A stretch of DNA of 64,000 bases from Candidatus Poribacteria bacterium (lineage in GTDB: Bacteria; Poribacteria; WGA-4E; WGA-3G). Shown here in pieces: positions 7,549 to 29,567 of the stretch. A program made the translations under genes and the position numbers. The stretch spans positions 672,001 to 736,000 of the forward strand of contig CBDANF010000002.1 in NCBI GenBank assembly GCA_965197475.1, given 5' to 3'. The notes below the pieces were generated by a model, which had not been told where the DNA came from, searched no databases, and worked only from the letters and a program-made list of their open reading frames with translations. Numbering within the stretch: the stretch's first letter is position 1; every line of letters begins with the position of its first letter.

Positions 7549-7854
7549 AAAAAGATTGTTGTTCAGAACTATTCAATTCTTGCGAGGTACTTTTGTAGGA
7601 GTGCTTTGTTAGCCCGATTTATGTGGGTAACAGCGTGTCCTTAGTGCTGATTATATGTGCAAACACGACAACTTGATGTCTCTCGGAAAATGCTAAAATT
7701 GCTTGAATTCAATCCATACGTGTGCTAAACTTCAGAATGTTCCTTGTGATTTGTATTTTGCAGGTCAACTATTGACCTACCATTATTCTTGGACCGTTAG
7801 ATTAAAACGAACGTGGGACACCCGAAAACTTAACACCCCAAGAGGAACCATCAG

Positions 7855-10800
7855 ATGAAAAAGAGACTGTTAATCATACTGAGTTTGTTGTTAGTTTCTA
7901 CTACTTTCCTACCGAACGGTTTTGCGCAAGACTTCAACCGATGGGGTTTACCTGAAGGTGCAATAGCACGTTTGGGTAAAGGGTGGATAACGGATATGGC
8001 GTTTTCACCTGACAGAAACCAACTCGCAGTGGCGTGTTCTATCGGTATATGGCTTTACAATGTGCGCACTGGCACCGAGGAAGCCTTCCTAAAGGGACAT
8101 ACAGAACTGGTCAATTCGGTTGCTTATTCTCCAGATGGGAAAATCCTTGCAAGTGGTAGTAATGATTGGACGATTCGAATTTGGGATGTGGATAAACGAA
8201 AGCATATTAAGACACTTGAAGGTCATACGGGTAAGGTTAATTCTGTAGCGTATTCGCAGGATGGAGAGACCATTGTAAGTGGAAGTGATGATGGAATTCG
8301 GGTTTGGAATGTTGAAAACTGGAATGATAAGATACTTTATAGAAGTGAGAATGCTGGCATAGTTAACATGATGTATTCACCTGATGAAAAAACACTTACC
8401 AGTTTAAGTAAAAACGGCAAAATAGAATCATGGGATTTAACAAGTGGTGAGAAGCAATGGACTATATTAGGGTATAAAAAATCAAGAAAACTCAAATCAC
8501 TGCTACAGAATGTTATTAAATTAAGTTCATATTCACTTGATGGTAAGACATTTGCCAATTGGTCTGGTGTAGAAATGCGTTTGTATAACGTAGTCAAAGG
8601 TAATTTGGAACTTCTCTTTAAAAAATCTGAAATATCTGTTTATTCGTTAGCATTTTCTCCAAATGGCAGCACAATTGTCACTGGAAGTGATGATGGTACA
8701 ATTAGTATATGGAATACGAAGAATGGAGAGCATAAACGAACTCTTCCTGGACATTCAGGTATGGTGACATCTGTGGCATATTCCCCGGACGGTAACATTG
8801 TCGCCAGTGCAAGTTTAGATGGGACGATTCGTCTGTGGGGTGCAGTGGGCGGATTGCCAAAACGAACTTTTACGGGACATACCCGTAATTTCGATCTCCT
8901 TGCATATTCGCCAAACGGGAAAACACTTGCAAGCAGGACCAAGAACGGTAACATTTTTGTATGGGATGCCAAGACATTTAAATACAAGTTTACACTTGCT
9001 GTCCATACAAATTACAAAGATGTTCTCCGGACTGCTGAAAGGCGTAATAGGGGGACCAATACCGAAAGAATAAACGTTCCACTTGCCTATTCTCCGGATG
9101 GGACTACACTTGCAACTGCAGATATGAACAATACCATACGTTTATGGGACACAGAAAACGGTAAACTTAAACTGACTTTTAAGGCAAAAAATGATGAAGA
9201 ACAACCGCCCGATCAGAATAATCGTGTTCGCCGTCCATATACTATCACCTCGTTAGCATATTCTATAGATGGAAAGACACTTGTGGGTGGTAGTAGAGAT
9301 GGTAAGATTCAATTCTGGGACCTTGAACGTGAAGGGCATCAACAAACGTTTGCAGAGCAGAGATTTCCTGTAATTTTCTTAGGGTATCCCTTGAATGATA
9401 GGATAATTACAAGCGAGATGGTTTCAGAAATAAATATTTGGGATGTTCCGAAACAACAACTTATCCGAACAATTAACATACAACAAATAAGGGGTGGAAG
9501 GGGCGGCATAAATTCCATTTCATTTTCTCCAGATGGCAAGACGGTTGCAGATGCAAATGATGATAATAAAATATTTCTTTGGAATACTGAAACTGGAACA
9601 CTTCAACAAAAAATTTCTGTACATACAGATAAGGTTTCTTCAATTGCTTATTCACCAGACGGTAGTACGCTTGCAAGTGCAGGTGATGATAATTACATTC
9701 GTTTGTGGGATGCGGGGACTGGACAGTATAAGCGGACACTTACCGGACATTTGGGCAGTGTCACTTCAGTCGCCTTTTCTCCTGACGGGAAAACATTAGC
9801 AAGCACAAGCGATGACGGGACGATTTTGCTGTGGGATATTGCACATGTAAAGCAGGGCAATGAATCAAAACCCGCACATGAAAAATGGACAGATATATCG
9901 CAATGGAATTTGCCGGACGAGGCATCAGCACGGCTTGGAAAAGGTTTAGTAAAAGATATTGCGTATTCACCAGACGGTAACCACTTAGCAGTGGCAAGCA
10001 GTATAGGCACATGGATCTATGATATTCGCACGGGTGCCGAACGCGCCTTGTTCCCAGGACCTATGGCATCAATTGAGCAGATATCATATTCACCTGATGG
10101 TAGAATACTTGCGGGGAGAAATTCTCGTGAGATTTATTCGCTTGATGCAGTAACCGGCAAATATTTGCATACTATATCTTTGAATTCAGTCCATTCTGGT
10201 TCTGGACGTAGGACATTTATGTATTCACGTGATGGAAGCAAGCTTGTAAGTTGGGGGCATGGTGGTAGTGTACAATTGTGGGATGCCATAACTGGTCAAC
10301 ACAGACACACAATTGAGGGGACGAGTAATAGTTATTGTTTTGCGTTTTCTCCAGATGGTTCAACGATCGCATACAGCATACGCGCTATGCCAGAAATCAG
10401 CAATAAAGTGCATCTGTGGGATGGGACTACTTCAAAACACAAGAAAACTTTAACCGGACACAAGCATGGGGTTGAATCCATTATATGGGCACCAAATGGA
10501 AAAACCATAGCAAGTCTAAGTAAGCCAAATGGTTGGTCGCCCGGTTCAAGTAAAATAGATATCCAATTGTGGGATGCAGAAACAGGCAATCTTAAACACA
10601 CACTGACTTATGATGAATATGTCAGTTTAGTTACATATTCTCCTGATGGTAAGACCTTAGCTGTTGGATCAGATATGCTTATTTACTTATATGATGTTTT
10701 AAGTGGAAAACTCAAACATAAACTTTTGGGGTATGCCCCATTTGTGTTTTCACCAGATGGAAAAACAATTGCAGTTGATGGTTATATCAACACTATCAGT

Positions 10801-11838
10801 TTGTGGGATGCAGTATCTGGCAGACCCTTGCAGGCGTTCAATGGACCATTAGCAGTCACTTCACTACTATACTCACCTGACGGCACCACGCTCACAGGTG
10901 CGAATGAACACAGTATGGTTTGTGTTTGGGATGTAGACACTGCAAAACTAAAACATACTTTTGAGCATTCTGGTGATATCAGAGCTTTGGCATATTCCCC
11001 AGATAGGAAGACATTGGCATCTGGTGGGAGTGACAGTATGATCCGTCTGTGGGATGTCGCTTCAAGGACCCAAAAACTAAAATTGAATGGACCCGACTAT
11101 ATTGAGACAATGACATATTCACCTGATGGGACTACAATAGCAGCTAATGGTGAGTATAACACAGTCCTATTATTGGATGTATCAAGTGGAAACCAAAAAC
11201 AGAAATTTAAACTTGATATGCCGCATCATATTGTCCGCTCAATTGCGTATTCCCCCGATGGGAAGACATTAGCCACCTCAGGACCAGAAAATACAATTGA
11301 ATTGTGGGATGTAATGACAGGAACACTTAAAAAAATACTTACTGGACATACCAAATATGTGCGGTCGGTAGCCTATTCACCAGACGGTAAAACAATAGCG
11401 AGTGGAAGTTCAGACACAAATATTCGATTGTGGGATGCATCCACAGGCGAGCATAAACTTACGCTATCTAATAATACGCATGCTGGGTCTAAAGTGGTGT
11501 TTTCCCCAGATGGTCAGACGTTAGCCAGTACGGGTGATCACAGCAAAATTCATTTGTGGGATTTAGAGACAGGACAACTCAAATCTATACTCAAACACGG
11601 TGCAAATTCTGTAGCATATTCCCCAGATGGTGTGATATTAGCAAGTAGTGCAGGAGGTTCCATTCATTTATGGAATCCACATACTGGTAAACTGAAAAAG
11701 GTATTTTACGGACATTTTAATTATCACAATGTGAATTCGTTAGTTTTTTCACCAGATGGAAAAACGCTTGCAAGCGGTAGTAGTGATGGAACAATCCTAA
11801 TGTGGGATATAACAGAATTCAAAAATACAACTGATTAG
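7855..11838 (+). CDS. large secreted WD40-repeat protein (two tandem multi-propeller modules)
   Basis: Signal peptide and many GH...SVAYSPDG..LAS.S.D..IRLWD repeats. The lead-in WGLPEGAIARLGKG recurs as WNLPDEASARLGKG near 9900. Confidence 0.95.
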   Translation: MKKRLLIILSLLLVSTTFLPNGFAQDFNRWGLPEGAIARLGKGWITDMAFSPDRNQLAVACSIGIWLYNVRTGTEEAFLKGHTELVNSVAYSPDGKILASGSNDWTIRIWDVDKRKHIKTLEGHTGKVNSVAYSQDGETIVSGSDDGIRVWNVENWNDKILYRSENAGIVNMMYSPDEKTLTSLSKNGKIESWDLTSGEKQWTILGYKKSRKLKSLLQNVIKLSSYSLDGKTFANWSGVEMRLYNVVKGNLELLFKKSEISVYSLAFSPNGSTIVTGSDDGTISIWNTKNGEHKRTLPGHSGMVTSVAYSPDGNIVASASLDGTIRLWGAVGGLPKRTFTGHTRNFDLLAYSPNGKTLASRTKNGNIFVWDAKTFKYKFTLAVHTNYKDVLRTAERRNRGTNTERINVPLAYSPDGTTLATADMNNTIRLWDTENGKLKLTFKAKNDEEQPPDQNNRVRRPYTITSLAYSIDGKTLVGGSRDGKIQFWDLEREGHQQTFAEQRFPVIFLGYPLNDRIITSEMVSEINIWDVPKQQLIRTINIQQIRGGRGGINSISFSPDGKTVADANDDNKIFLWNTETGTLQQKISVHTDKVSSIAYSPDGSTLASAGDDNYIRLWDAGTGQYKRTLTGHLGSVTSVAFSPDGKTLASTSDDGTILLWDIAHVKQGNESKPAHEKWTDISQWNLPDEASARLGKGLVKDIAYSPDGNHLAVASSIGTWIYDIRTGAERALFPGPMASIEQISYSPDGRILAGRNSREIYSLDAVTGKYLHTISLNSVHSGSGRRTFMYSRDGSKLVSWGHGGSVQLWDAITGQHRHTIEGTSNSYCFAFSPDGSTIAYSIRAMPEISNKVHLWDGTTSKHKKTLTGHKHGVESIIWAPNGKTIASLSKPNGWSPGSSKIDIQLWDAETGNLKHTLTYDEYVSLVTYSPDGKTLAVGSDMLIYLYDVLSGKLKHKLLGYAPFVFSPDGKTIAVDGYINTISLWDAVSGRPLQAFNGPLAVTSLLYSPDGTTLTGANEHSMVCVWDVDTAKLKHTFEHSGDIRALAYSPDRKTLASGGSDSMIRLWDVASRTQKLKLNGPDYIETMTYSPDGTTIAANGEYNTVLLLDVSSGNQKQKFKLDMPHHIVRSIAYSPDGKTLATSGPENTIELWDVMTGTLKKILTGHTKYVRSVAYSPDGKTIASGSSDTNIRLWDASTGEHKLTLSNNTHAGSKVVFSPDGQTLASTGDHSKIHLWDLETGQLKSILKHGANSVAYSPDGVILASSAGGSIHLWNPHTGKLKKVFYGHFNYHNVNSLVFSPDGKTLASGSSDGTILMWDITEFKNTTD

Positions 11839-11964: not shown

Positions 11965-12729
11965 ATGTTTATTGATTCACACGCACATATACAACTCTCC
12001 CAATTTGATAGCGATCGAACCGCTGTGTTGAAGCGCGCGAAGGACGCTGGTGTCTTTAACATTCTTGTCATTGGGATTGATGTGGAAACCAGTTTTGATG
12101 CAATTAAATTGGCTGAGAGATACGACAACGTCTATGCTACCGTCGGGATGCATCCACACAATGCGAAGCAAATGAATTCTGATGCATACCACTACTTTTT
12201 TGACCTCACGAGACATCCGAAAGTGGTTGCCCTTGGTGAGATGGGGTTAGACTACTACCGCAACCAAGCACCACGCACAGTGCAGAAAAAGGCGTTTGAA
12301 AGACAGTTAGACATCGCTGAAGAATTTGATTTTCCTATCATCATCCACAACCGTGATGCCTATGAGGATATTCTACCTATCTTAGAGGAACGGGATGTAG
12401 GGCAAAACTGCGTGATGCACTGTTTTACGGGTGATTTAGACTTGATGCATAAATGCCTTGAGCTTGAGTTTTACATCGGCATCGGGGGAATTGTCACATA
12501 TCCAAATGCCAAAGATGTGCAAGCCGTGGCGAAAGAAGTGCCACTGGAACGCCTATTAATCGAAACCGATTGTCCGTGGTTAGCACCACAATTCCGACGT
12601 GGTAAACGCAACGAACCTGCTTATGTCCGTGCAGTTGCAGAAAAGATAGCTGAACTAAGAGGCACTACCGTAGAAGCAATTGGTGAAATAACGACAAAGA
12701 ATTTTGATACGTTGTTCGCACCTGATTAA
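11965..12729 (+). CDS. tatD: TatD-family deoxyribonuclease
   Basis: IDSHAH, GMHPH, GEMGLDY, IIHNRDA, MHCFTG, ETDCPWL, RNEP motifs. Confidence 0.93.
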   Translation: MFIDSHAHIQLSQFDSDRTAVLKRAKDAGVFNILVIGIDVETSFDAIKLAERYDNVYATVGMHPHNAKQMNSDAYHYFFDLTRHPKVVALGEMGLDYYRNQAPRTVQKKAFERQLDIAEEFDFPIIIHNRDAYEDILPILEERDVGQNCVMHCFTGDLDLMHKCLELEFYIGIGGIVTYPNAKDVQAVAKEVPLERLLIETDCPWLAPQFRRGKRNEPAYVRAVAEKIAELRGTTVEAIGEITTKNFDTLFAPD

Positions 12730-12752
12730 TCAGAAAGACAAAACTATCAAGT

Positions 12753-13862
12753 ATGAAGCATCTGAATCTTCGTATGTATGCAATGGTGCTCGTTCTCGTC
12801 AGTGTCTGGGTGATTTTTACACTACTGACCAGCGGCACCTTCCTCAGCACTCGGAATCTCTCTAATCTTTCCCGTCAAGCTGCTGTCTCTGCTATCCTCG
12901 CTGTCGGTATGACGTTCGTCATCGTCTCCGCCAACATTGACCTATCTGTCGGCTACGGTGCTGGGTTGCTCGGTGCTATTACTGCAATTCTGCACGTTCG
13001 GTGGGAACAGCCGATAATCCTGACACTCCTCGCCGTTGTCTGCATCGGTATTCTGATAGGATTGATACAAGGCTATCTCGTGGCGTATCAGCGCATTCCA
13101 GCGTTTATTGTCACTCTTGGAGGATTTTTGGTCTACCGTGGCTTGATGTTAGCCTTTACAAAAGGCGAAACTATCCTCCTAAACGATAATTGGTTAAAAG
13201 CCATTGGCAACGCCTACCTTCCACGGACCATCGGATGGGGTATTATGGTTGTTGGACTTGGTGTGAGCGGATATGTGTTTTTCCGTCAACTCTCAAATTC
13301 GGAGTCGGCGCGCACCCTCAAAGCATATTTACCCATAATTTTTAAAATAATTGGGACGTGGGGCTGCATTATCGTATTCGTCACTGTGATGAATATTTAT
13401 AAAGGAATTCCACTGTCAGTGTGTATTCTGTTCGGGTTGGCATTTGTGTTCCACTTCATTGCGAACCATACCCGTTTTGGAAGGTATGTTTATGCTGTTG
13501 GTGGCAATGCCGAAGCAGCATATCTCTCCGGTATCAATGTCCGCGGAATCACGTTGCGGGTGTTTGCAACAATGGGTGCATTAATGGCAATCGCTGGCAT
13601 TGTAATGACAGCGCGCGTCGGGAGTGCAACTTCAGAAGCCGGACGTTTGCTTGAGTTAGATGCAATTGCGGCGTGTGTTATCGGCGGTGCCAGTTTAATG
13701 GGTGGACGCGGCAGCATTTTCGGTGCTATCTTAGGTGCGTTCGTCATGGAAAGCCTTAACAACGGAATGAGCATGGCAAACATGGCAATCGCTTGGCAAG
13801 ATATTATCAAAGGTCTTGTCCTTGTTGCAGCTGTTGGCTTTGATATGGCATCACGAAAATAA
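12753..13862 (+). CDS. sugar ABC transporter permease (XylH/GguB-like)
   Basis: IDLSVG, IPAFIVTLGG, TRFGRYVYAVGGNAEAAYLSGI and ELDAIAACVIGGASLMGGRG motifs; multiple TM helices. Confidence 0.92.
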   Translation: MKHLNLRMYAMVLVLVSVWVIFTLLTSGTFLSTRNLSNLSRQAAVSAILAVGMTFVIVSANIDLSVGYGAGLLGAITAILHVRWEQPIILTLLAVVCIGILIGLIQGYLVAYQRIPAFIVTLGGFLVYRGLMLAFTKGETILLNDNWLKAIGNAYLPRTIGWGIMVVGLGVSGYVFFRQLSNSESARTLKAYLPIIFKIIGTWGCIIVFVTVMNIYKGIPLSVCILFGLAFVFHFIANHTRFGRYVYAVGGNAEAAYLSGINVRGITLRVFATMGALMAIAGIVMTARVGSATSEAGRLLELDAIAACVIGGASLMGGRGSIFGAILGAFVMESLNNGMSMANMAIAWQDIIKGLVLVAAVGFDMASRK

Positions 13863-14014: not shown

Positions 14015-14326
14015 TTGGATAGCCAAACAGTTCTTAGCAAACACTTCATCAAACAGAAACTCTTAGACAATCGGGATACACTGAAAAAGTATGGTGTCAA
14101 ACAGATTGGGTTGTCCGGATCCTACGTGAACGGGACTGCACATGCCTCAAGTGACATTGATCTACTTGTTGAATTAGAAAGGTTGACTTTTCACGACTAT
14201 ATGGGATTGACTCTTTACCTTGAAGATCTGTTTGAGAAAAAGGTTGATCTTGTCACCGCTAAATCGATTAAACCGCACCTGAAACCACATATAGAAAAAG
14301 AGGTGGAATATGTCACGGGCCTATGA
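14015..14326 (+). CDS. minimal nucleotidyltransferase antitoxin (MntA-like)
   Basis: GSY...SDIDLLV and LEDLFEKKVDLVT. Overlaps the downstream HEPN gene. Confidence 0.88.
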   Translation: MDSQTVLSKHFIKQKLLDNRDTLKKYGVKQIGLSGSYVNGTAHASSDIDLLVELERLTFHDYMGLTLYLEDLFEKKVDLVTAKSIKPHLKPHIEKEVEYVTGL

Positions 14327-14627
14327 CGTATATTTCCAAGATATAATAGAAGCGATCAACCGTATTGAGTCGTATGTTCAAAGCACTACTCGCTTCCAGT
14401 TTGAAATCGATCGGATGCGATATGATGCAGTCGTCCGTAACCTTGAGATAATAGGTGAAGCAGTCAAGCGGATTCCCGACTTGATTCGGGAGAGTTACCC
14501 AAGTGTTGCTTGGCGAAAGATAGCAGGTTTAAGAGACAGACTGATTCATGCATACTTTGATATTGACACCGACATTATCTGGGATGTGGTGCAATCGGAA
14601 CTCCCGATTTTGAAGAGCGAAGTTTAG
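14310..14627 (+). CDS. HEPN/DUF86 ribonuclease toxin (HepT-like)
   Basis: DAVVRNLEIIGEA, W..IAGLRDRLIHAY (RX4HXY) and IIWDVV. Confidence 0.88.
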   Translation: MSRAYDVYFQDIIEAINRIESYVQSTTRFQFEIDRMRYDAVVRNLEIIGEAVKRIPDLIRESYPSVAWRKIAGLRDRLIHAYFDIDTDIIWDVVQSELPILKSEV

Positions 14628-14937
14628 CGTATTCTTGATGAGCATAGCAGATAATTATATTGATTTGTAAACAAGGTTTGTAACCACACCATCCAAAAGA
14701 AAACCCTCTTATCCGATTGATTAATATCTTGCATCCGTCTTCACTTTTCCAGTGTTATTTATGCTTTTACACTAAGTCACTTCATTAATCTCCTAACTTC
14801 AAACAATTAAGAATATCTCAATAAGATTTGAGTGTTCAATAAAATTAATTCCAAAACCGAAATTTTCTGTCATTTTTTTAAACCGTTTTCCCAAATTTCC
14901 CCCTCTTTATAACTGAAATCTAATTGGGAACCTACTC

Positions 14938-17900
14938 ATGCACTACAATTTTGTCACTCCAAACAATCTGACAGATGAAGAACTGGTTCGACTTGTCCAA
15001 AGTCGCGATGAAGCAGCATTCGCGGAATTAATGTCTCGTTATAGTCCACGAATCTGGAACGTGGTTGTCGAAAATTCAAGACAACGTCGGGATGCGGAAG
15101 AGATTCTTATGGACATCTGGATGGTTGTATGGGATAACATTATCGGTTTACGAAAAGCGGAAAGTTTTAGCGGATGGTTACGGCGAATAGCCTACACCGC
15201 TTGCAACAGATACTACGGTTCTGGATCGCATCGGCATAGTGAAATTATACTGAGTTACGAAGATTTAGCTTTTCAGATTGATAGAGAAGCTGAGCAGCGT
15301 TTTCAGGATGTGAGGCTTCGATCAGATGCAAGAGAGGCTGTGCATAACCTTCCACAAAGGGTCCGTTCTGTAGCAATATTGTACTATCTCGAACTATGGA
15401 ATGTTAAAGAAATTGCAGAAGAACTCAACTTACCGATCGGCACAGTCAAGACGAAGCTAAGTGAAATAAGACACCTTTTACGCCAAGAGTTTGAGGTGGA
15501 ACCTACAAGGGGGAAAACGATGTCACAGGAACAGGAAAAATCTGAAAGTTTACGAACCAAATTTAAAGTTATAGGAATCGGTGGAGCGGGTTGCAATGTT
15601 GTTAAACACATGATAGAAGACGGTTTGGCAGACATTGAATTCTGTGCTGTTGATACAGACACGGAAACACTTAGTGCATGCCACGGTGCAACACAAGTGC
15701 AAATAGGTGTCAACACCGTTCAAGGACAAAGCACGGACGGGAGTCTGGAACTGGGAAGAAGAGCTGCTGCGGAAAGCATAGATGAACTTCGATCTATCGT
15801 CTCAGATGCCAAGATGGTTATCGTTATCGCTGGCATGGGTGGTGGAACGGGCACTGGTGTCGCTCCGGTGGTTGCATCTCTGGCACGAGAACATGGCGCA
15901 TTAACAGTTTGCTTTGTAACCCGTCCGTTCGATTCTGAAGGAGAACACCGTTCAGAACAGGCAGGATACGGAGTGCGGGAACTGCAAAGCGGTACACACC
16001 CACGGGCAGATGCTCTCATCGTTGTGCCTAACCAACGGATATTGGACTTGATCGACCGAGAATTACCGATGCAAGAAGCGTTTCAACAAAGCGATGAAAT
16101 CCTGCTACACGGTATTAAAAACATTACAGATCTCCTTGTAGAAATGGGCGAAATAAGCATTAACTTTGATGATATTCAGGAAACGCTGCGCGACCAAGGG
16201 ACTGTCCTGATGGGTATCGGAAAAGCAACAGGTGAAAATAGGGCAACAATTGCAGCAAAGAACGCTATCTCCTCACCCTTGCTTGAAGGGAACAGCATTG
16301 CCGGTGCTGTTGGAATGATTATAAATATCGCTTCTCCACCAGATTTCACTATGCAGGAATTGGACCAAGCCATGAAAGTAATTTGTAAAACATGTGAAAA
16401 TGCCCAACCCCTCTTCGGATTAATCTTCAAAGATGAAATGGGAGCTAGCGATGAAGTCTTGGTGACTGTAATGGCAAGCGGGTTTGAGTCACAAAGTGAT
16501 CAGACACCACCGATTTCTTCCAGCAAGGGCGGCGACACTCCCAGACAAGACAGTGTTATTTCACCTTCAACCGCTTCAGAATTTGTTCATCTACACAATC
16601 ACAGTGAATATAGCCTGTTGGACGGTGCGTGCCGAATCCCGGATATGGTGCAGTGGGCAATTGAGAACAGTTCGCCTGCTGTCGCACTTACCGACCACGG
16701 TAATATGTTCGGTGCATGGGAATTTTACAACACTGCCAAAGCAGCAGGTGTGAACCCAATTGTTGGATGTGAAGTGTATGTCGAAACAGAAAACACAAGA
16801 ACAGATGGGAATTGCCAATGTTCACCGTCCCATCTCACCCTGCTCGCAGAGGACGCTACAGGCTATCACAATCTCTTAGAATTAACATCACTCGGATATA
16901 CGCAAGGTTTCCACAGTAAACCCCGTATCAATCTGGAAATGCTGCGTGAAAATCATGGTGGTATAATAGCATTGACAGGATGCATCAACGGATTAGTCCC
17001 AAAGTTAATCTGTTCTGATCAAAGAGACGAAGCGGTTCGCAACCTCTTGCAATTGAGAGACATCATGGGAGCAGACAACCTATTTGTCGAAATTCAAAAC
17101 CACTATATTGATGAGGAATTGGCAGCATATCCGGTGATGGTGGAATTTGCAAATGAGTTCAATCTCCCTATTGTCGGCACAAACGATTGTCACTATCTCC
17201 GAAAATCCGACCACCGTATGCACGAGATCCTTCTCTGTATCCAGAGAAAGAAAACCGTCAATGACCCTGAACGGATGCGGTTTGACAATCATTTCTATTT
17301 TAAGAATGTTGACGAAATGCGCGTGGTGCTTAAGGATTATCCACCCGAAGCGATCATCAATACTGTTGAAATTGCCAACCGGTGTAATCTGAGACTTGAT
17401 TACGGCAAAAGTATGATACCTGAATTTGAAGTGCCAGAAGGACATACCAACGACAGTTATCTGAAAGAACTTTGCTATGACGGTTTGCGACAAAAATATG
17501 GGGGACATCTTTCCGAACCGATTCGCAAGCGGTTGGAGTACGAACTTGACATTATCCAACAAACCGGCCACGCTAGCTATTTCCTAATTGTTGCGGATTA
17601 CGTCAGCTATGCGAACAAACAGGGATATCTACTCTCTGCTCGTGGTTCTGCTGCTGGTAGTCTTGTGCTTTATGCGCTCAGTGTAATTAATTTCAATCCG
17701 ATGGAACATGGATGTCTGTTTGAAAGATTTTTAAACCTTGACAGGATGAATCCTCCAGACATTGATATAGATTTCGCTGATCATGCACGTGATGATGTGA
17801 TCAATTACCTTGTGAGAAAATACGGTCATGATTCTGTCGGTAAAGTTGCTACCTTTGCTACGTTAGGGGCAAAAGCTGCTATCAAAGATGTCGGACGTGC

Positions 17901-19224
17901 CCTTGAAATCCCTCTTGATAACGTCGCTAAGTTGACAGGATTAATTCCATCCATACCTGGCATCACGCTTGACGAAGCATTGGAAAAGACACCAGATTTT
18001 CAGGAACTTGCGGAACTCCCTGAAAATAGGGAATTGATAGAGCTTAGCAAGGCGGTAGAAGGTATGAAACGGCATGTTTCATGTCATGCCTCTGCAATCG
18101 TGGTTTCACACGGTTCTCTGATGAATTATGTACCGCTATTCAAGGATAGAAATGGACAAGTTGCAACACAGTTTGAAGGAAAAACGGTTGAAGATGTCGG
18201 CATCATTAAATTTGATACGCTTGGTGTCCGAAGTCTTTCTGAGGTTGCTGACTGTCTCAATATGATTCAAGAAAATCATGGTCGCAAGATTGCACTTGAA
18301 GATATTCCGCTTGACGATGAAAAGACCTATTCACTCATTAGTAAAGGGTTGATTGCTGGGCTATTCCAACTCGAAACTTCTCCCGGTATGTATAAGTTGG
18401 TTATAGAACTCAAGCCGGAAAACTTTGCGGTATTTTCCGCAATTCCCGCACTCTATCGCCCTGGTCCATTGGAAAGTGGTATAATGCAGCAGTTTATTGA
18501 TCGGAAAAACGGATTACAACCTATTGCGTATATACATCCCTCGTTTGAAAATGCGCTCAAAAGCACTTTCGGTGTCTGTATCTATCAGGAACAAGTGATG
18601 CAGATTGCATGTGATACAGCAGGTTTCACACTTGGTGAGGCAGATACCCTCCGCGGGGCAATGGGAAAAAAGAAAGTAGATGTAATCAAAGAACAACGAT
18701 CCAAATTCATTGATGGAGCGGTAGAAAATGGAATTCAAAAAAATGAGGCTGGAGAGGTTTTTGAACATCTCATATCTATAGGTAGATATGCCTTCAACAA
18801 ATCGCACTCCGTCGCTTATTCTATGTTAGCCTACCGAATGGCGTATCTGAAAACGCACTATCCCCATGAATTTATGGCGGCGATAATGAGTGGAGAGGCA
18901 GCGGATAAAGAAAAGATTAAGCGTTACCGAGCTGAATGTGTGAAACTTGCTGACTTCCTCGGTGTAGAAATCAATCTTATTCCGTTAGATATCAACAGCA
19001 GTGAGAAAAACTTTGTTGTGGAAGGCAACGATATCCGTTTCGGACTTGTTGCTGTTGAACGTATTAGTGATGCAGCAATAGATTCAATTCTAACGGAAAG
19101 AAATCGTGACGGTTTATTTACATCACTCCAAGATTTTCGTGATCGTTTGGATTCAACAGAGGTGGATGAAACCGTTATTGAAAACCTCATCAAGTCCGGT
19201 GCATTTAACACTCTTTCTGAATAA
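14938..19224 (+). CDS. triple fusion: ECF sigma-70 factor (aa ~1-190) + FtsZ-like GTPase (aa ~205-516) + DNA polymerase III alpha core (aa ~548-1428, C-terminally truncated)
   Basis: One open frame. Sigma: DAEEIL, FSGWLRRIA, LPQRVR...VKEIAEELNLPIGTVKT. FtsZ: KVIGIGGAGCN, AGMGGGTGTG, RPFDSEG, VPNQ, AISSPLLE, VTVMASGF. DnaE: HLHNHSEYSLLDG, TDHG, TNDCHY, RGSAAGS, PDIDIDF, KFDTLG, YQEQVMQ, YAFNKSHS, LIKSGAF. Confidence 0.93.
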   Translation: MHYNFVTPNNLTDEELVRLVQSRDEAAFAELMSRYSPRIWNVVVENSRQRRDAEEILMDIWMVVWDNIIGLRKAESFSGWLRRIAYTACNRYYGSGSHRHSEIILSYEDLAFQIDREAEQRFQDVRLRSDAREAVHNLPQRVRSVAILYYLELWNVKEIAEELNLPIGTVKTKLSEIRHLLRQEFEVEPTRGKTMSQEQEKSESLRTKFKVIGIGGAGCNVVKHMIEDGLADIEFCAVDTDTETLSACHGATQVQIGVNTVQGQSTDGSLELGRRAAAESIDELRSIVSDAKMVIVIAGMGGGTGTGVAPVVASLAREHGALTVCFVTRPFDSEGEHRSEQAGYGVRELQSGTHPRADALIVVPNQRILDLIDRELPMQEAFQQSDEILLHGIKNITDLLVEMGEISINFDDIQETLRDQGTVLMGIGKATGENRATIAAKNAISSPLLEGNSIAGAVGMIINIASPPDFTMQELDQAMKVICKTCENAQPLFGLIFKDEMGASDEVLVTVMASGFESQSDQTPPISSSKGGDTPRQDSVISPSTASEFVHLHNHSEYSLLDGACRIPDMVQWAIENSSPAVALTDHGNMFGAWEFYNTAKAAGVNPIVGCEVYVETENTRTDGNCQCSPSHLTLLAEDATGYHNLLELTSLGYTQGFHSKPRINLEMLRENHGGIIALTGCINGLVPKLICSDQRDEAVRNLLQLRDIMGADNLFVEIQNHYIDEELAAYPVMVEFANEFNLPIVGTNDCHYLRKSDHRMHEILLCIQRKKTVNDPERMRFDNHFYFKNVDEMRVVLKDYPPEAIINTVEIANRCNLRLDYGKSMIPEFEVPEGHTNDSYLKELCYDGLRQKYGGHLSEPIRKRLEYELDIIQQTGHASYFLIVADYVSYANKQGYLLSARGSAAGSLVLYALSVINFNPMEHGCLFERFLNLDRMNPPDIDIDFADHARDDVINYLVRKYGHDSVGKVATFATLGAKAAIKDVGRALEIPLDNVAKLTGLIPSIPGITLDEALEKTPDFQELAELPENRELIELSKAVEGMKRHVSCHASAIVVSHGSLMNYVPLFKDRNGQVATQFEGKTVEDVGIIKFDTLGVRSLSEVADCLNMIQENHGRKIALEDIPLDDEKTYSLISKGLIAGLFQLETSPGMYKLVIELKPENFAVFSAIPALYRPGPLESGIMQQFIDRKNGLQPIAYIHPSFENALKSTFGVCIYQEQVMQIACDTAGFTLGEADTLRGAMGKKKVDVIKEQRSKFIDGAVENGIQKNEAGEVFEHLISIGRYAFNKSHSVAYSMLAYRMAYLKTHYPHEFMAAIMSGEAADKEKIKRYRAECVKLADFLGVEINLIPLDINSSEKNFVVEGNDIRFGLVAVERISDAAIDSILTERNRDGLFTSLQDFRDRLDSTEVDETVIENLIKSGAFNTLSE

Positions 19225-19353: not shown

Positions 19354-19547
19354 ACGTGAGTTTGATAATAATATTGGATGGACGCAGTCCGATCAAAAGT
19401 CCCCCTGATAAGGGGGATTTAGGGGGTTAAAAGTGCCTCAAAAATTGCTTTTCGCGCCCAAAAATACCCTTTTTTGCCAAATTTGCGTCCGTCTTGAATA
19501 TTATTAAAGTCCATTTGACTCAATGAATTCTTTTATCAAGCTCACGT
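19354..19547. mobile_element. MITE-like element with nested inverted repeats and an SDR-like palindrome core
   Basis: ACGTGAGTTTGATAA at the left and TTATCAAGCTCACGT at the right, flanked by duplicated TAAAATA. Inner inverted repeat AATAATATT..GA(T/C)GGACGCA. Core CCCCCTGATAAGGGGGATTTAGGGGG at 19401-19426. Confidence 0.65.
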
Positions 19548-19608: not shown

Positions 19609-20265
19609 ATGAACATTCAGAGAATTAGGAAAGTGACACAGTTAATTCACCGTATTACACAAAAAGACGTTAATTTTCCGGTATCAATAAATGCATTTTT
19701 AAAAACAGATACACCTGAAGTGATATGGGCGCGTGGGAATTTAGACCTATTATCTAATAAAAGCGATGCCTCAAAAGAGGACTTATGGGCACTATTCTGT
19801 TCCAGTAAATGTCCTGCCGAGATTATCTTGAAAACACACGATTTAGTTCAGGAATTCAAGGCAGAAGGTGTCTCAACAATCGGTGGATTTCATTCACCTG
19901 TTGAACAAGAGTGCTTACGCGTCTTATTGCGTGGCTCACAACCGATCTTATTATGTCCCGCACGAAGTATTGAAAACATGCAATTGAAGTCGGGGTGGCG
20001 AAAGGCTTATTTTGATAGAAGGCTCCTGATCTTATCTATATTTTGTGAAAAAAGAATTTCCGCAGAACGAGCGTACAAACGTAACCACTTCGTTGCAGCA
20101 CTCGCAAGTAAGGTATTAATTGCACATGCCGCTGAAGACAGTAAAACTTTGGAATTTACACAAACAATATTGAAATGGGGAAAACCTGTTTTCACTTTTA
20201 ATTCATCATCAAATAAAGCACTTATTCAACTCGGGGTAAAACCTTATTCAAGGGATTTACCCTAA
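19609..20265 (+). CDS. DprA/SLOG-fold (Rossmann) protein
   Basis: IWARGNLDLL, ALFCSSKCP, IGGFHSPVEQECL, LCPARS and RNHFVAALASKVLIAHA resemble the DprA/Smf core. Confidence 0.7.
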   Translation: MNIQRIRKVTQLIHRITQKDVNFPVSINAFLKTDTPEVIWARGNLDLLSNKSDASKEDLWALFCSSKCPAEIILKTHDLVQEFKAEGVSTIGGFHSPVEQECLRVLLRGSQPILLCPARSIENMQLKSGWRKAYFDRRLLILSIFCEKRISAERAYKRNHFVAALASKVLIAHAAEDSKTLEFTQTILKWGKPVFTFNSSSNKALIQLGVKPYSRDLP

Positions 20266-20299: not shown

Positions 20300-23200
20300 A
20301 TGCCACGAATCTTTGATAACATAGACCAACCGCTCCTCCAAGCACTGCAGCAAACCCTCGAATCCTCTACCCATGCAGACTTCTGTGTCGGATATTTTAA
20401 CCTCAGAGGATGGAGAAGACTCGCAAATTACATTGAAAATTGGCAAGGTGGCGATGGCGAATGCTGCCGTCTACTCGTAGGAATGCAGCGACTCCCCGAT
20501 GAAGAACTACGTCACACCATGCGTATTTTTAAAGATACAGACAGAATTGATAACCAGACAGCCAACCGTTTAAAACGAAAGTTAGCAGAAGAATTTCGCG
20601 AGCAATTAACTGTTGGCATACCTACCCGTGATGACGAAATCGGTCTAAGACAGTTAGCACGCCAACTTCGGCACGGAAAGGTAAAGGTAAAATTATATCT
20701 TCAACATCCCCTTCATGCCAAACTTTATCTACTTTACCGCCAAGACCTCGCCGCACCGATTGTCGGTTACCTCGGCAGCAGCAACCTCACCCTTGCCGGA
20801 CTTTCACAGCAAGGCGAACTCAACGTTGATGTGCTCGATTCAGACGCATGCCAAAAGTTAGAGGTGTGGTTTGAAGACAGGTGGAGCGACAAGCGGTGCA
20901 TTGATATATCTAAGGAATTAGTCGAAATTATTGACGAGAGTTGGGCGCGTGAAGAACTCATTCCACCATATCACATCTACATTAAAATGGCGTATCACCT
21001 ATCCCAGGAAGCAAGGGCGGGGTTGAACGAATTTCGGATTCCACGCGAATTTGAAGATACGCTCTTTGATTTTCAAACTGCTGCTGTTAAAATCGCAGCA
21101 CATCATCTTAACAGACGCGGCGGTGTTCTTATCGGAGACGTTGTGGGTCTCGGCAAAACGCTGATGGGAACAGCACTTGCACGCATACAGGAAGACGATT
21201 ACGACCTTGAAACACTTATTATTTGTCCGAAGAATCTCGTCAGCATGTGGGAATTTTACCGTGACGAATACCGCTTGCGCGCAAGGGTGCTTTCAATAAG
21301 TCGAGTTCAGAACGTGTTGCCGACGCTTCGACGTTATCGACTCGTGATGATTGATGAAAGCCACAACCTCAGAAACCGTGAAGGCAAACGTTACCGCGCG
21401 ATTCAAGAATATATCCATGAAAATGAGAGCAAGGTTATCTTACTCTCTGCAACCCCTTACAACAAAACCTTCCTTGATCTCTCAAACCAACTTCGCCTCT
21501 TTGTTGATGAAACCGAAGGTATTGGAATCCGACCAGAACAATACATCAAAGCGTTAGGCGGCGAAATCGGTTTTAATCGCGAACACCAAAGTGGTATTCG
21601 CACCCTTGCTGCGTTTGAACATAGTGAATTCATTGACGATTGGCGTGAATTGATGCGGCGTTATCTTGTCCGCAGAACCCGTAGTTTTATCATGCAAAAC
21701 TATGCTGAAGTAGACCCCGACACGGAACGAAAATTCCTTTCTTTTGCCGATGGAACGCGGTCCTACTTCCCAACACGTGTACCAAAAACAGTTAAGTTTA
21801 CAATTGATGACCAAGACCCTGATGACACCTATGCACAGTTATACTCTTCTTACGTCGTTAACATAATAAGCAAACTCAAACTGGCTCGATACGGGCTTGC
21901 AAACTATATTGACATATCGGATTCTGAACCACTGACAGAAGCTGAAGAGGAACAATTGCAAGACCTTTCACGTGGTGGACAACGGTTGATGGGCTTCTGT
22001 CGCACAAACCTTTTCAAACGACTTGAAAGTAGTGGTAAAGCATTCCTACAATCTGTTGATCGGCATATCCTACGAAACTATATCTTTCTCCATGCAATAG
22101 AGAACAACGAATCATTCCCGATCGGTGGTCTTGATGCTTCAATGCTTGATTCCCGTTTCAGTGATAAAGACTCCGATGATGTTAACCTAATTTCAGGTAT
22201 CTCAGATGATGAAGATGATGAGTTGATTGATACGAGCGATTCTCAATCCAACTTGTACACTACTGAAAACTATAGACAACGCGCTGCCCGTATTTATCAA
22301 CTTTACTTGACCCAGTATAAAACTCGGTTTAAGTGGATTCGTTCAGATCTATTTCTGCCGATACTTAAGGATGAGCTCACCAAAGATGCAAACGCACTGA
22401 TTCAAATCTTGCAACAATATGGCGAATGGGATGTTAAAAAAGATGCAAAACTCAACGCACTTGAGGAACTATTAACACAAATACATCCAGACACAAAAGT
22501 CTTGGTTTTCACGCAATTTGCAGATACTGTAAAATATTTGACAGGCGAACTTAAAGTACGAGGTATCACGCAAATAGAAAAAGCAACCGGTGATTCAGCA
22601 AATCCAACCGAATTGGCATGCCGATTCAGTCCTATCAGCAATAATAGAGAAGGTATCCCCACAGAAGATATATTGCGCGTTCTCATCAGCACAGATGTAC
22701 TAAGTGAAGGGCAGAATTTACAGGACTGTGCAATTGTCGTAAACTATGATCTGCCGTGGGCAATTATACGGTTAGTCCAACGTGCTGGTCGCGTTGACCG
22801 TATTGGTCAAACGGCGGAAGAAATATTGTGCTACTCATTTTTACCAGCGGAAGGTGTTGAACGTATTATCAATCTACGCGGACGCGTCCGAGCACGTCTG
22901 CAACAGAACGCTGAAGTGGTAGGCACAGATGAGGCATTTTTTGAGGATGACGGTGAAGATGGTAACACAGCAATCATTAACCTTTATAATGAGGAGGCAG
23001 GTTTGCTTGACGATGATATGGATAACGACGTTGATCTCGCCTCTCACGCCTATCAGATTTGGAAAAATGCTATTACCGAAGACCCTGACTTAGAAAAAAT
23101 TATTACAAAACTCCCCTCTGTTGTCTATTCAACTAAATCACATACGCCTACTGATACGCAACCGATAGGTGCACTGGTGTATATTCGAACTGGAGAAGAT

Positions 23201-23686
23201 AATGATGCGCTTGCATGGATTGATAAAAACGGAGAAAGTGTGACAGAATCACAGTTCACCATTCTACAAGCTGCAGCGTGCGAACCGGAGACAGAAGCAC
23301 TTCAACCCCTTGAGAAACACCACGACCTCGTGCAAGAAGCCGCGAAACTCATCGTATCTGAGGAGCGATCAGTTGGTGGGCAACTCGGCAGACCGTCGGG
23401 AGCGCGGTTTCGCACTTATGAAAGGTTGAAGGATTACGCCTCAGAGGTTGAAGGCACGCTATTTGATACGCCAGAACTCAAACAGGTTATAGAAAATGTC
23501 TATCGTTACCCCTTACGTCCAGTAGCAACCGATACCCTCAACCGTCAACTCCGCATCGGTATTACTAACGAGAACCTTGTTAAGTTAGTGATTGATTTAT
23601 GGAATGATGGTCGACTTTGTATTGTTGAAGAAAAACGCGAAATGCGAGAACCCAAGATCGTCTGTTCATTAGGGCTTTCTTCCTAA
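20300..23686 (+). CDS. PLD-nuclease + SNF2-family helicase (defence-associated)
   Basis: PLD-like motifs VGYF, HAKLYL and GSSNLT...GELN. Helicase motifs DVVGLGKT, IDESHN, LSATP, VFTQFADT, SEGQNLQ, QRAGRVDRIG. Confidence 0.9.
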   Translation: MPRIFDNIDQPLLQALQQTLESSTHADFCVGYFNLRGWRRLANYIENWQGGDGECCRLLVGMQRLPDEELRHTMRIFKDTDRIDNQTANRLKRKLAEEFREQLTVGIPTRDDEIGLRQLARQLRHGKVKVKLYLQHPLHAKLYLLYRQDLAAPIVGYLGSSNLTLAGLSQQGELNVDVLDSDACQKLEVWFEDRWSDKRCIDISKELVEIIDESWAREELIPPYHIYIKMAYHLSQEARAGLNEFRIPREFEDTLFDFQTAAVKIAAHHLNRRGGVLIGDVVGLGKTLMGTALARIQEDDYDLETLIICPKNLVSMWEFYRDEYRLRARVLSISRVQNVLPTLRRYRLVMIDESHNLRNREGKRYRAIQEYIHENESKVILLSATPYNKTFLDLSNQLRLFVDETEGIGIRPEQYIKALGGEIGFNREHQSGIRTLAAFEHSEFIDDWRELMRRYLVRRTRSFIMQNYAEVDPDTERKFLSFADGTRSYFPTRVPKTVKFTIDDQDPDDTYAQLYSSYVVNIISKLKLARYGLANYIDISDSEPLTEAEEEQLQDLSRGGQRLMGFCRTNLFKRLESSGKAFLQSVDRHILRNYIFLHAIENNESFPIGGLDASMLDSRFSDKDSDDVNLISGISDDEDDELIDTSDSQSNLYTTENYRQRAARIYQLYLTQYKTRFKWIRSDLFLPILKDELTKDANALIQILQQYGEWDVKKDAKLNALEELLTQIHPDTKVLVFTQFADTVKYLTGELKVRGITQIEKATGDSANPTELACRFSPISNNREGIPTEDILRVLISTDVLSEGQNLQDCAIVVNYDLPWAIIRLVQRAGRVDRIGQTAEEILCYSFLPAEGVERIINLRGRVRARLQQNAEVVGTDEAFFEDDGEDGNTAIINLYNEEAGLLDDDMDNDVDLASHAYQIWKNAITEDPDLEKIITKLPSVVYSTKSHTPTDTQPIGALVYIRTGEDNDALAWIDKNGESVTESQFTILQAAACEPETEALQPLEKHHDLVQEAAKLIVSEERSVGGQLGRPSGARFRTYERLKDYASEVEGTLFDTPELKQVIENVYRYPLRPVATDTLNRQLRIGITNENLVKLVIDLWNDGRLCIVEEKREMREPKIVCSLGLSS

Positions 23687-27900: not shown

Positions 27901-28196
27901 CACTCAACCCATCTGATGTCCAAAATTTTCCTGTTTATGAATCTGCACTCAATGATCCGCAACTCATTGAACTCGGAGAGATGTATTTAGAAGATCTACA
28001 ACGTAATAGTATTATGCAGGTTCGCGTTCAAAAACAGACTGGACGCACTGAAACGCAATCGTTCAAAATTCAGAAATCCAAGCACATCATAAATGAAATT
28101 GACCGTGTGCTTGCCGAACACTACGGCTTTACCGACGAGGAATTAGACTTTATCATTAACTACGACATCAAGTATCGTATGGGTTTAGGGAATTGA
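24918..28196 (+). CDS. large N6-adenine DNA methyltransferase (Eco57I/type IIG-like)
   Basis: IPYLNGGIF, LGYIFEKYIN, GAYYT, motif I VLDPTCGSGAFL, LYGVDI, motif IV IIGNPPY, and a C-terminal target-recognition region. Confidence 0.9.
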   Translation: MQIDFEQTREYLKEFKFEDLFIEELGWDNPPETLNVTIDETEYVLTAIAHKRGMVVYECPQTTSQENIPVYATRRKIQKQVAKSTHENFIIYTNAEKTTQIWQWVKREQGKPDACREHRYEIWQSGDSLIQKLQNIAFSFEEEEEISLFSVIERVGTAFYAERVTKKFYDRFKKEHDAFLEFLNGIPDEEMQKWYVSVMLNRLMFIYFIQKKGFLNSDINYLQTKLRETQQNGTDLYYKEFLCPLFFEGFAKPENERDRDISDQLGTIPYLNGGIFQKHQLETLHGENIEIPDTAFKKLFSFFEQYQWHLDDRQLRNDNEINPDVLGYIFEKYINQKQMGAYYTKEDITEYISKNTIIPFLFDAAKKSCKIAFEGDASVWKLLQEDPDRYIYDAVKKGVKLDLPEDITAGIDDVSKRTEWNERAPEGVDEIALPTEIWREVVARRQRHEQIRSKLANGKIDNINDLITYNLNIRQFAQDVIENCEGPELLRAFWKAITEVTVLDPTCGSGAFLFAALNILEPLYEACLDRMQVFLDELITVSPLTRGAGGLENIPKKPHALKYKDFRQTLDRIAEHPNRDYFVLKSIIINNLYGVDIMEEAIEICKLRLFLKMVAQIEDVQQIEPLPDIDFNIQAGNTLVGFATDDEIESAFSGRLDFENAMERIIEKAEDIKERFTLFRQQQTELGGTVTQADKQVLQSEIGTLGDELNEYLADIYDVDMNELSDYEEWLNSHKPFHWFIAFYGILQDGGFDVIIGNPPYLELREVDYRPPTSLISYETKTIHAMCMDRSLQLLIQHGCMSMIVPSALVSTQRMRIVQSLLEKSRNVWYANYSWRPGKLFDTVNRALTIFVVAPSNQGQTFSTNYQKWTSENRDLLMRGVDYAEIPRNRTAFWAPKLGTEIENVLLEKFMRVKAVLKLFMAKSGNRVYYRNSGGLYWKVFTDFPPAFKVNGETGHSTRETSFSLAQRGMTKSSIAILSSNVFWWWYTVTSDCRSLNPSDVQNFPVYESALNDPQLIELGEMYLEDLQRNSIMQVRVQKQTGRTETQSFKIQKSKHIINEIDRVLAEHYGFTDEELDFIINYDIKYRMGLGN
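26541..26570. repeat. SDR/REP-like palindrome inserted in frame in the methyltransferase (SPLTRGAGGL)
   Basis: TCCCCTCTGACAAGGGGGGCAGGGGGGTTA matches the intergenic TCCCCCTGATAAGGGGGATTTAGGGGGTTA at 19400-19429. Confidence 0.7.
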
Positions 28197-29482: not shown

Positions 29483-29567
29483 CTGGGACGTTGTCATAGT
29501 CGTGATGCACCATCAAGTATCGTATGGGTTTGGGGAATTAATTTAGGAAAAGGAATGGCGACATCTA

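Follow-up and report, generated by a model that had tools for sequence, protein, structure and literature searches.

A conserved gene of uncultured Poribacteria joins a sigma factor module to paralogues of FtsZ and of the DNA polymerase III alpha core

We analyzed a gene of composite architecture in a 64,000-nucleotide (nt) stretch of DNA from Candidatus Poribacteria bacterium (contig CBDANF010000002.1, positions 672,001 to 736,000), hereafter called the window. One uninterrupted frame at 14938..19224 on the plus strand encodes a protein of 1428 amino acids (aa) composed of a sigma part, an FtsZ part and a DnaE part. Transcription, division and replication in bacteria normally depend on separate proteins, with sigma factors, FtsZ and the replicative polymerase among their central parts. 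The initial annotation of the window, made from the letters alone, had described a stop-free frame of 1428 codons joining three domains; the frame and the Pfam and NCBIfam matches reported below agree with this description. The gene and the elements that accompany it are as follows.

14877..14906, plus strand: promoter motif resembling those of the extracytoplasmic function (ECF) type, with TTTAAACC (-35-like) at 14877-14884, a 17-nt spacer and CCTCT (-10-like) at 14902-14906
14926..14930, plus strand: Shine-Dalgarno (SD)-like GGGAA, 7 nt upstream of the start codon at 14938
14938..15519, plus strand: ECF-type sigma module, aa 1-194, with sigma2 helices at about aa 13-93 and sigma4 helices at about aa 125-184
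15508-15513 and 15520-15522, plus strand: internal SD-like AGGGGG and ATG (M195), conserved at the sigma/cargo junction
15523..16488, plus strand: diverged FtsZ paralogue module, aa 196-517, with GTPase domain and FtsZ_C
16489..16572, plus strand: Pro/Ser-rich flexible linker, aa 518-545, read from the sequence, with an AlphaFold2 (AF2) predicted local distance difference test score (pLDDT) below 50 at aa 517-545
16573..19224, plus strand: catalytic core of DnaE, the alpha subunit of DNA polymerase III (Pol III), aa 546-1428 and the stop codon, with PHP, palm, thumb, fingers and helix-hairpin-helix (HhH) parts

The domain content was determined with Pfam and NCBIfam profiles at their own cut-offs. 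Pfam recognized Sigma70_r4_2 at aa 132-178 (33.1 bits, cut-off 25.7), Tubulin at aa 210-372, FtsZ_C at aa 421-517, PHP at aa 551-722, DNA_pol3_alpha at aa 840-1096, DNA_pol3_finger at aa 1101-1265 and HHH_6 at aa 1345-1427; Sigma70_r2, at aa 31-93, scored 21.3 bits, just below its 24-bit cut-off. The NCBIfam models matched the N terminus as sigma70-ECF (TIGR02937, 64.5 bits, cut-off 42.9), the middle as ftsZ (TIGR00065, 298.6 bits, cut-off 295.2) and the rest as DnaE (PRK05673, 1040.2 bits, cut-off 1002), the last over profile positions 3-885 of 1146. The sigma module has only the sigma2 and sigma4 domains, and it passed the TIGR02937 family model with region 2 under the Pfam cut-off. Ahead of the ATG, the TAATTGGGAA block is kept among orthologues.

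An AF2 model covering aa 1-545 reached a mean pLDDT of 72.4 and a predicted template modeling score (pTM) of 0.57, and its placement of the domains relative to each other is not informative. The sigma module appears in it as two helical bundles, at aa 13-93 and aa 125-184, with pLDDT values of 70-80. The FtsZ fold is confident (pLDDT 80-93 across aa 206-516), and FtsZ chains of the PDB match the fused module at an E value of 1e-77. Disorder was predicted at aa 94-128, at the sigma/FtsZ junction (aa 186-205) and at aa 517-545.

The tubulin signature GMGGGTGTG, which the initial annotation had pointed out, is encoded exactly at 15832-15858. The FtsZ fold had also been called full length; the GTPase domain and FtsZ_C are present, but the module lacks the conserved C-terminal peptide of the canonical FtsZ of the genus. 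The fused modules are devoid of this tail, ...WDIPAFLRV..., and run into linker and DnaE instead; the Pro/Ser linker at aa 518-545 is a derivative of the FtsZ C-terminal linker. The fused copies have diverged extensively: among 155 columns that are invariant in 13 canonical FtsZ proteins, 128 are altered in at least one of 27 full fused copies. NTD is replaced by DTD in all 27, and in the T3 loop 26 of the 27 carry T at aa 266 and 26 have L instead of P at aa 270. The N-x-D-x-x-D motif of the T7 synergy loop is needed for GTP hydrolysis in the FtsZ filament. In the window protein, S407 and N409 replace the canonical N and D, and D412 is retained. Of 15 triple fusions, 9 retain the N, 11 the first D and 14 the last D, as compared with all three residues in 13/13 canonical copies.

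The polymerase part had been taken for a PHP-polymerase core of DnaE. The core is there, but about 260 C-terminal profile positions are missing, comprising the clamp motif, the oligonucleotide-binding (OB) fold and the tau-binding part. The frame stops just short of the canonical QMNLF clamp motif, and its DnaE positions 3-881 align end to end with residues 5-891 of truncated Escherichia coli alpha (PDB 2hnh, 2hqa). Lacking the clamp-binding, OB and tau-binding parts, the fused DnaE cannot enter the replisome in the usual way. Its catalytic features are preserved: PDIDIDF (aa 940), KFDTLG (aa 1091; KFDxLG) and the N-terminal PHP motifs are retained, and 167 of the 314 columns that do not vary among 20 free DnaE proteins are unchanged in 17/17 fused copies, with just 28 altered in the majority. 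One copy in which DnaE is joined directly to sigma has PDINIDF for PDIDIDF.

The host assembly is a metagenome-assembled genome (MAG) of 5.70 Mb in 3 contigs, 92.7% complete with 6.97% contamination, and the fusion lies on contig 2. Canonical counterparts are present on contig 3, a dnaE frame of 1183 aa sharing 71% identity with the fused core and an ftsZ gene (G000:C3:2028366-2029394) sharing 57% with the fused module. The fusion is a paralogue, as had been proposed from the window.

Related fusions are widespread in the genus. Full-length, stop-free fusions at 61-81% identity were listed for 10 other species; exceptions among the genus fusions are G010, where the match reaches aa 1321, and G019, which has one TAA. 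In a census based on the best sigma match in each of 40 genomes of the genus, counted by hand, open frames of triple size (1359-1473 aa) were found in 17 and sigma-FtsZ frames of about 594-671 aa in 16. Two genomes have sigma-DnaE frames (1105 and 1113 aa). A single genome, G020, has a split form with a TAA inside the sigma match and separate open frames for sigma (248 aa) and FtsZ (430 aa). The remaining 4 of the 40 (G009, G011, G018 and G042) gave no such frame.

Beyond the genus, searches at E values up to 1e-125 detected a sigma-FtsZ match in 98 of 112 genomes of the family: 33/39 in genus g1, 62/65 in g13, 1/1 each in g10 and g12, 0/3 in g9 and 0/2 in g11. Frames of at least 1221 aa occur in 40 genomes of g13 by hand count. 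At the level of the phylum the match was present in 98/176 genomes, all from this one family, and in none of the 64 genomes from ten other families. A large protein collection yielded 223 matches at E values up to 1e-5; of the 120 listed among these, 118 have both sigma and Tubulin Pfam domains. The lengths of the listed relatives cluster at about 1345-1356 aa, without HHH_6, and at 1420-1430 aa. The names they bear, where a source gives one, are automatic: "DNA polymerase III subunit alpha" or else "cell division protein FtsZ", with Candidatus Poribacteria as the organism. One variant, P0090 (G089:C1:2600061 onward, L092), is 1743 aa long, with about 320 extra C-terminal residues past the HhH part that have no Pfam match.

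Trees were built for FtsZ (42 rows, quick method) and DnaE (37 rows), with the second genus, g13, not included. All FtsZ modules that are linked to sigma fall into one group (SH-aLRT 89), within which the triple and double forms come together with a support of 100. This group lies beside the canonical FtsZ clade of the genus (support 96; other families of the order as outgroup), and its branches are much longer than the canonical ones. Similarly, 17 fused DnaE cores form a single clade (support 100) beside free DnaE. The two sigma-DnaE proteins nest inside the fused DnaE clade, adjoining a triple fusion with a very long FtsZ branch, indicating that they lost FtsZ secondarily. The double forms of about 600 aa end in a 40-residue tail that is a degenerate but recognizable remnant of the DnaE N terminus. 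The double forms descend from a triple fusion by truncation. Inheritance of the gene is vertical, and its position is fixed in the one family of Poribacteria that has it. Several genomes of the genus contain a further free DnaE paralogue that is 61-68% identical, in frames of about 990-1185 aa, and forms its own clade with a support of 100 (L055-L062: G024:C1:293867-296512; G010:C79; G002:C14 and C15; G012:C121; G007:C1:2693031; G011:C380).

Selection was gauged by running an NG86 script pairwise over five genomes plus six additional close pairs. The ratios of nonsynonymous to synonymous substitution rates (dN/dS), for which some dS values exceeded 1 and were near saturation, were 0.09-0.16 for the sigma module, 0.16-0.29 for fused FtsZ and 0.10-0.16 for fused DnaE, as compared with 0.04-0.09 for canonical FtsZ and 0.04-0.07 for canonical DnaE. 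All three modules are under purifying selection, which is relaxed relative to the housekeeping copies. Fused FtsZ evolves 2-4 times faster than canonical FtsZ, and the sigma module is the most conserved part, with a mean column identity of 80% in 25 orthologues. Synonymous divergence differs several-fold between modules in some pairs: for L017/L018, dS is 0.10-0.11 in sigma and FtsZ versus 0.39 in DnaE, and L019/L017 behaves likewise. This unevenness within gene pairs suggests recombination between species inside the gene.

A chimeric assembly, a stop codon lost in one MAG or a decaying pseudogene could in principle produce such a frame, and the MAG origin with its estimated contamination would be compatible with an artefact. 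Public short contigs, taken from three runs of a single study, cover the gene with no indels listed, but no single listed piece spans the whole stretch. Contig X1 record 5 crosses the FtsZ-DnaE junction (16306-16609) with 0 differences, and the sigma/FtsZ junction is covered by overlapping short contigs only (X2 records 9 and 10, X1 record 2). The same architecture is open in dozens of independent assemblies, single-contig genomes included, which excludes both a misassembly and a private lost stop. Together with the junction-spanning contig and the purifying selection on all modules, this rules out misassembly, lost stop codon and pseudogene, and we give an artefactual origin practically no credence. 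Misassembly, absence from relatives and neutral evolution, the outcomes against which the initial annotation had cautioned, were each checked and none held. The identity of the gene and the conservation of the fusion are nearly certain.

The sigma module itself belongs to a larger set. Paralogues that are 46-89% identical to it were found in 39/40 genomes of the genus, at 1-8 copies per genome. The host genome has two further ones, whose sigma parts are 64% and 58% identical and whose frames are 569 and 568 aa long. A Pfam scan of ten examples revealed several types of cargo behind the sigma part: WD40 propellers (frames of 800-940 aa), the FtsZ GTPase domain by itself (frames of about 404-413 aa), DnaE joined directly to sigma, and a short helix-turn-helix-like region. 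Most sigma paralogues bear WD40 cargo. The GTPase-only paralogue has canonical T2 and T3 loops and occurs in most genomes of the second large genus. The subfamily joins one and the same sigma module to interchangeable cargo: WD40, FtsZ in full, only its GTPase domain, FtsZ-DnaE, or DnaE without FtsZ. The window also encodes, at 7834-11838, a protein of 1334 aa made nearly entirely of WD40 propellers, and in several related genomes the region downstream of the fusion contains relatives of its repeats, of about 300 aa.

At the junction between sigma and cargo, SD-like runs (AGGGGG, AGGAGG, AAGGAG or GAGGAG) were found in every cargo class, followed 5-9 nt on by an in-frame ATG, or GTG in two cases. 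The nucleotides of the junction are conserved while the residues that they encode vary between copies. An SD-like core at -16 to -4 precedes 41 of 43 junction starts, versus 70 of 821 other in-frame internal ATG codons of the same genes, the rows being homologous and not independent. A sigma-less FtsZ-DnaE protein of 1230 aa, P0121, is on record, and the split form of G020 points the same way. M195 is therefore probably a second translation start, giving a sigma-less FtsZ-DnaE protein of 1234 aa, and the gene would yield two products, the fusion and a cargo protein devoid of sigma.

The promoter motif shows the same association with the family. TTTAAACC-N17-CCTCT sits 31 nt ahead of the start codon of the fusion, and TTTAAACC...CCTCT lies upstream of 37 of 44 members of the sigma family, with a spacer of exactly 17 nt in 34. 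A T tract precedes it and a GGGA-type ribosome-binding site follows about 20 nt later. The -35 element contains AAC and the -10 element CTC; the common -10 element of ECF promoters is CGTC. A scan of the 5.7-Mb host genome with a position weight matrix (PWM) returned only three strong sites (35.0, 31.5 and 25.4 bits), each before a sigma-family gene, the top score being that of the fusion's own promoter. The next genomic site scored 22.5 and the maximum in the reversed genome was 21.8. In the 40 genomes of the genus, the exact pattern occurs 99 times versus 23 times in the reversed control, and by hand comparison of coordinates 79 of the 99 matches are situated at most about 100 nt upstream of a gene of the family. 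The simplest reading of this distribution is that the family's own sigma factors would read the motif, resulting in autoregulation and cross-regulation.

Some of the sites outside the family are conserved. They precede a MacB_PCD/FtsX permease in three genomes and an unknown 432-aa open reading frame (ORF) in two, and one precedes a WD40 gene whose sigma part is lost. Outside the family, no candidate target recurs other than the MacB_PCD/FtsX-type permease (G022:C1:2184967, G052:C1:1749928 and G006:C1:259886; L083-L085). In the host genome, the homologues of the permease, the 432-aa ORF and the WD40 gene do not have the motif, and regular-expression and PWM scans of that genome gave nothing convincing beyond the three paralogue promoters.

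The surroundings of the fusion in the window are listed below.

11965-13862: TatD and permease genes
14015-14326: MNT (NTP_transf_2, PADLOC PDC-S09), which forms a toxin-antitoxin pair with HepT
14310-14627: HepT, between the permease gene and the fusion
19609-20265: PsyrA/ShosA-like DprA-fold gene
20300-23686: HKD+Snf2 helicase
24918-28196: Type IIG restriction-modification enzyme (1027 bits)
29547-30305: ComF-like gene (double zinc ribbon and phosphoribosyltransferase)
30403 onward, to about 34 kb: SMC gene

These neighbors are as first described, with MNT/HepT on one side and defence-type genes on the other. The proposal that the fusion is an accessory gene set between a toxin-antitoxin pair and a defence island did not survive comparison with relatives. 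In 17/17 related loci examined, the triple or double fusion is directly downstream of the TatD and permease homologues, and in none of the 17 did the MNT/HepT pair give a match. ComF-like and SMC homologues come right after the fusion in 4 of the 17 loci. The toxin-antitoxin pair and the island at 19.3-29.5 kb, whose content does resemble a defence island, therefore look like insertions specific to the host genome. Membership of a defence island was rejected as a conserved feature, since defence genes are not kept as neighbors in relatives.

We favor a model, to which we assign a probability of roughly 40%, in which the fusion is a one-component, self-regulated sigma factor gated by its FtsZ/DnaE extension. 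The idea of an ECF sigma factor with a regulatory or sensory C-terminal extension, put forward when the window was first read, remains the best frame. According to passages of PMC8999054, ECF sigma factors that bear an extension at the C terminus rely on it instead of an anti-sigma factor, and extensions of the WD40 type are known in ECF57. Pfam detected no anti-sigma domain in the immediate neighbors on either side of the fusion. In this model, the fusion would switch on its own promoter and, probably, the promoters of its paralogues, and the extension would gate the availability of sigma to RNA polymerase. The FtsZ-like module would assemble in a GTP-dependent manner with itself, with the sigma-less FtsZ-DnaE protein and possibly with native FtsZ, whereas DNA or primer ends would be bound by the DnaE core. 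Such assembly would keep sigma apart from core polymerase, so that activity of the private promoter would serve as a readout of how the division and replication machinery stands, or of the GTP level; most of what is made in response would be further fusion and paralogues. Folding the sigma module against the FtsZ module gave an ipSAE of 0.40 (best of 3 controls 0.00; partner pLDDT 82; at least 66% of contacts agreed between runs), which lends the gating step weak support. In the calibration of this procedure the mark was reached by 58/80 solved complexes and 2/110 mismatched pairs, and at values of at most 0.60 by only 7 of the 80 and by both mismatches.

Several observations weigh against this model. 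The predicted docking of sigma on FtsZ is weak, with an AF2 pTM of 0.57 and disordered junctions, and the FtsZ loops for the filament interface and GTP sensing are strongly diverged; assembly of the module, alone or with native FtsZ, is a prediction. Recognition of the motif by this sigma factor, rather than by another, is likewise presumed from its position. Targets beyond the family itself were not found: in the 40 genomes, the 20 matches outside it compare with 23 in the control. A pure sensor does not need the DnaE aspartates and PHP motifs that have been retained, which hints at a catalytic or DNA-bound role. Finally, the evidence consists of sequences and structure models.

The cargo could instead be the effector of the circuit, and the fusion a self-amplifying switch that arrests growth. 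An FtsZ without its tether and with altered GTPase loops might poison or cap Z-rings, and a polymerase core deprived of clamp and tau contacts might compete at primer ends. Positive feedback from the autoregulated promoter would then turn one trigger into a non-dividing, non-replicating symbiont, the internal start adding a sigma-less brake protein, in the service of symbiont growth control, dormancy or abortive infection. The privacy of the promoter, which would make the fusion the main product of the circuit, suits this idea, as do the loss of the C-terminal peptide and clamp motif and the changes in the T2, T3 and T7 loops; the conserved GTPase-only paralogue with its canonical GTP loops fits the geometry of a filament-end cap. 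Passages of PMC7159879 moreover describe cell-division domains in an inactive state (MinD/ParA, FtsK, rarely FtsZ/tubulin) that serve as effectors in bacterial conflict systems. However, toxicity or a dominant-negative effect is purely hypothetical, the gene is syntenic and conserved near housekeeping genes and outside defence islands, the WD40 cargo of most paralogues is no obvious poison, and the gene persists after loss of either the DnaE or the FtsZ module. We regard a growth brake as unlikely. It is more doubtful still that the cargo is the point of the gene, with FtsZ-DnaE, from the internal start and the fusion together, forming GTP-dependent filaments tethered to DNA instead of membrane for nucleoid organization or segregation, and sigma serving only its autoregulated supply. 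The conserved internal SD and ATG, the well-conserved DnaE core and the ancestral downstream neighbors, a ComF-like gene and SMC, would be in line with such a cytoskeleton, and the FtsZ linker, which normally leads to a membrane-tether peptide, here leads to a DNA-binding polymerase core. Yet the 16 genomes with just sigma-FtsZ and a DnaE remnant of about 40 aa and the 2 with sigma-DnaE show that the pair is not obligatory, sigma is the most conserved part, and both DNA binding and filament formation are hypothetical.

The initial annotation had also put forward the idea of an integrated decoy or guard, whose FtsZ and DnaE copies would bait phage or competitor inhibitors, binding then freeing or activating sigma to launch a defence program. 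The toxin-antitoxin pair and the restriction/helicase island do adjoin the gene in the host genome, its FtsZ module evolves at several times the canonical rate, and control of defence islands by ECF sigma/anti-sigma pairs in another phylum is described in passages of PMC11506125. We found no positive support for this idea and hold it to be improbable: the defence genes are not conserved neighbors, the fusion protein matched 0 PADLOC families at E values up to 0.001, and no defence gene of the host genome has the promoter motif in the PWM scan. The FtsZ surface is also a poor mimic of the real one: 128/155 columns invariant in canonical copies are changed in some fused copy, with consistent changes in the T2 and T3 loops, and dN/dS is well under 1 in each module. 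Most far-fetched among the functional alternatives, and very improbable in our estimate, is a promoter-targeted DNA polymerase, in which sigma would bring a clamp-independent core to opened promoters to extend short transcripts, with local DNA synthesis or mutagenesis at the family genes. The retained catalytic aspartates and PHP motifs, the natural truncation equal to the crystallized E. coli core constructs, the restriction of the motif to a fast-diversifying paralogue family and the module-wise differences in dS (L017/L018), which suggest recombination or a local difference in mutation, could all be read in its favor. Many family members have no polymerase module, however, and one sigma-DnaE copy has the altered PDINIDF.

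The general plan of the protein is that of ECF sigma factors with a C-terminal extension: a sigma2 and sigma4 core, a fused C-terminal domain and no anti-sigma domain in the immediate neighbors. The bipartite ECF-like motif of the putative promoter, with AAC in its -35 element, adds to the resemblance, as do the WD40 propellers on paralogues, which ECF57 also has in passages of PMC8999054. The differences lie in the extension, whose 1234 aa consist of paralogues of FtsZ and of the Pol III alpha core, both of them essential machines, and in the exchangeable cargo, the candidate start at the junction and the nearly family-private promoter. FtsZ, tubulin and polymerase III were not found in the main texts of PMC8999054 and bioRxiv 10.1101/2019.12.11.873521.

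The FtsZ module has the Tubulin GTPase domain, FtsZ_C and the GGGTGTG signature in common with canonical FtsZ and with tail-less FtsZ paralogues. One such paralogue is the magnetosome FtsZ-like protein, which has no C-terminal tail. The fused copy differs from canonical FtsZ in the missing C-terminal peptide, DTD for NTD, a changed T3 and a partly changed T7 loop, its location outside the division and cell wall (dcw) cluster, its faster evolution and the joining of both its ends to other proteins. The DnaE module resembles DnaE and the truncated E. coli alpha constructs in its PHP, palm, thumb, fingers and HhH parts and its catalytic motifs, but it is naturally cut before the clamp motif, OB fold and tau-binding domain and placed behind FtsZ and sigma. 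It is not of the DnaE2/ImuC type, being 71% identical and sister to the genome's own dnaE. SpoIIE-FtsZ-sigma F of Bacillus subtilis and gp55-gp33-sliding clamp of phage T4 couple the activity of a sigma factor to division or replication by way of separate proteins. The system proposed here would likewise tie a sigma factor to the division ring or the replication machinery; in those two systems the partners are non-covalent, whereas the Poribacteria protein includes copies of the machines within the same covalent chain as sigma, and there is no homology to the proteins of those systems.

Full-text literature searches turned up no account of a fusion of sigma with FtsZ, with DnaE or with both, although supplements, such as the ECF group compendium of bioRxiv 10.1101/2019.12.11.873521, could list such proteins. 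This agrees with the initial annotation, which knew of no characterized protein with this architecture; database records carry automatic names. For an ECF sigma factor with an extension, the cargo, the modular family, the private promoter and the internal start appear to be new. The conservation and selection of a fusion of sigma, FtsZ and polymerase across a family of uncultured sponge symbionts suggests that these bacteria link transcription, division and replication in one molecule. The architecture may provide a direct connection from gene expression to division and replication, and it may bear on how symbionts restrain their own growth in the host. A natural sigma factor with a family of exchangeable cargo, a private promoter and a probable second start is a compact, self-contained regulatory circuit, and whatever mechanism holds, it widens the range of possible ECF sigma extensions.

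A scan of the window for sigma-70 promoters and terminators gave fewer promoter-like sites than shuffled sequences and no terminator-like site on the plus strand past the gene. A G/C-rich hairpin, TCCCCCTTATCAGGGGGA (minus-strand scan), is located at 19390-19430 of the window, inside a short element. Contig depth there is far above that of the surroundings and many contigs end at this place, and the element is probably a dispersed repeat.

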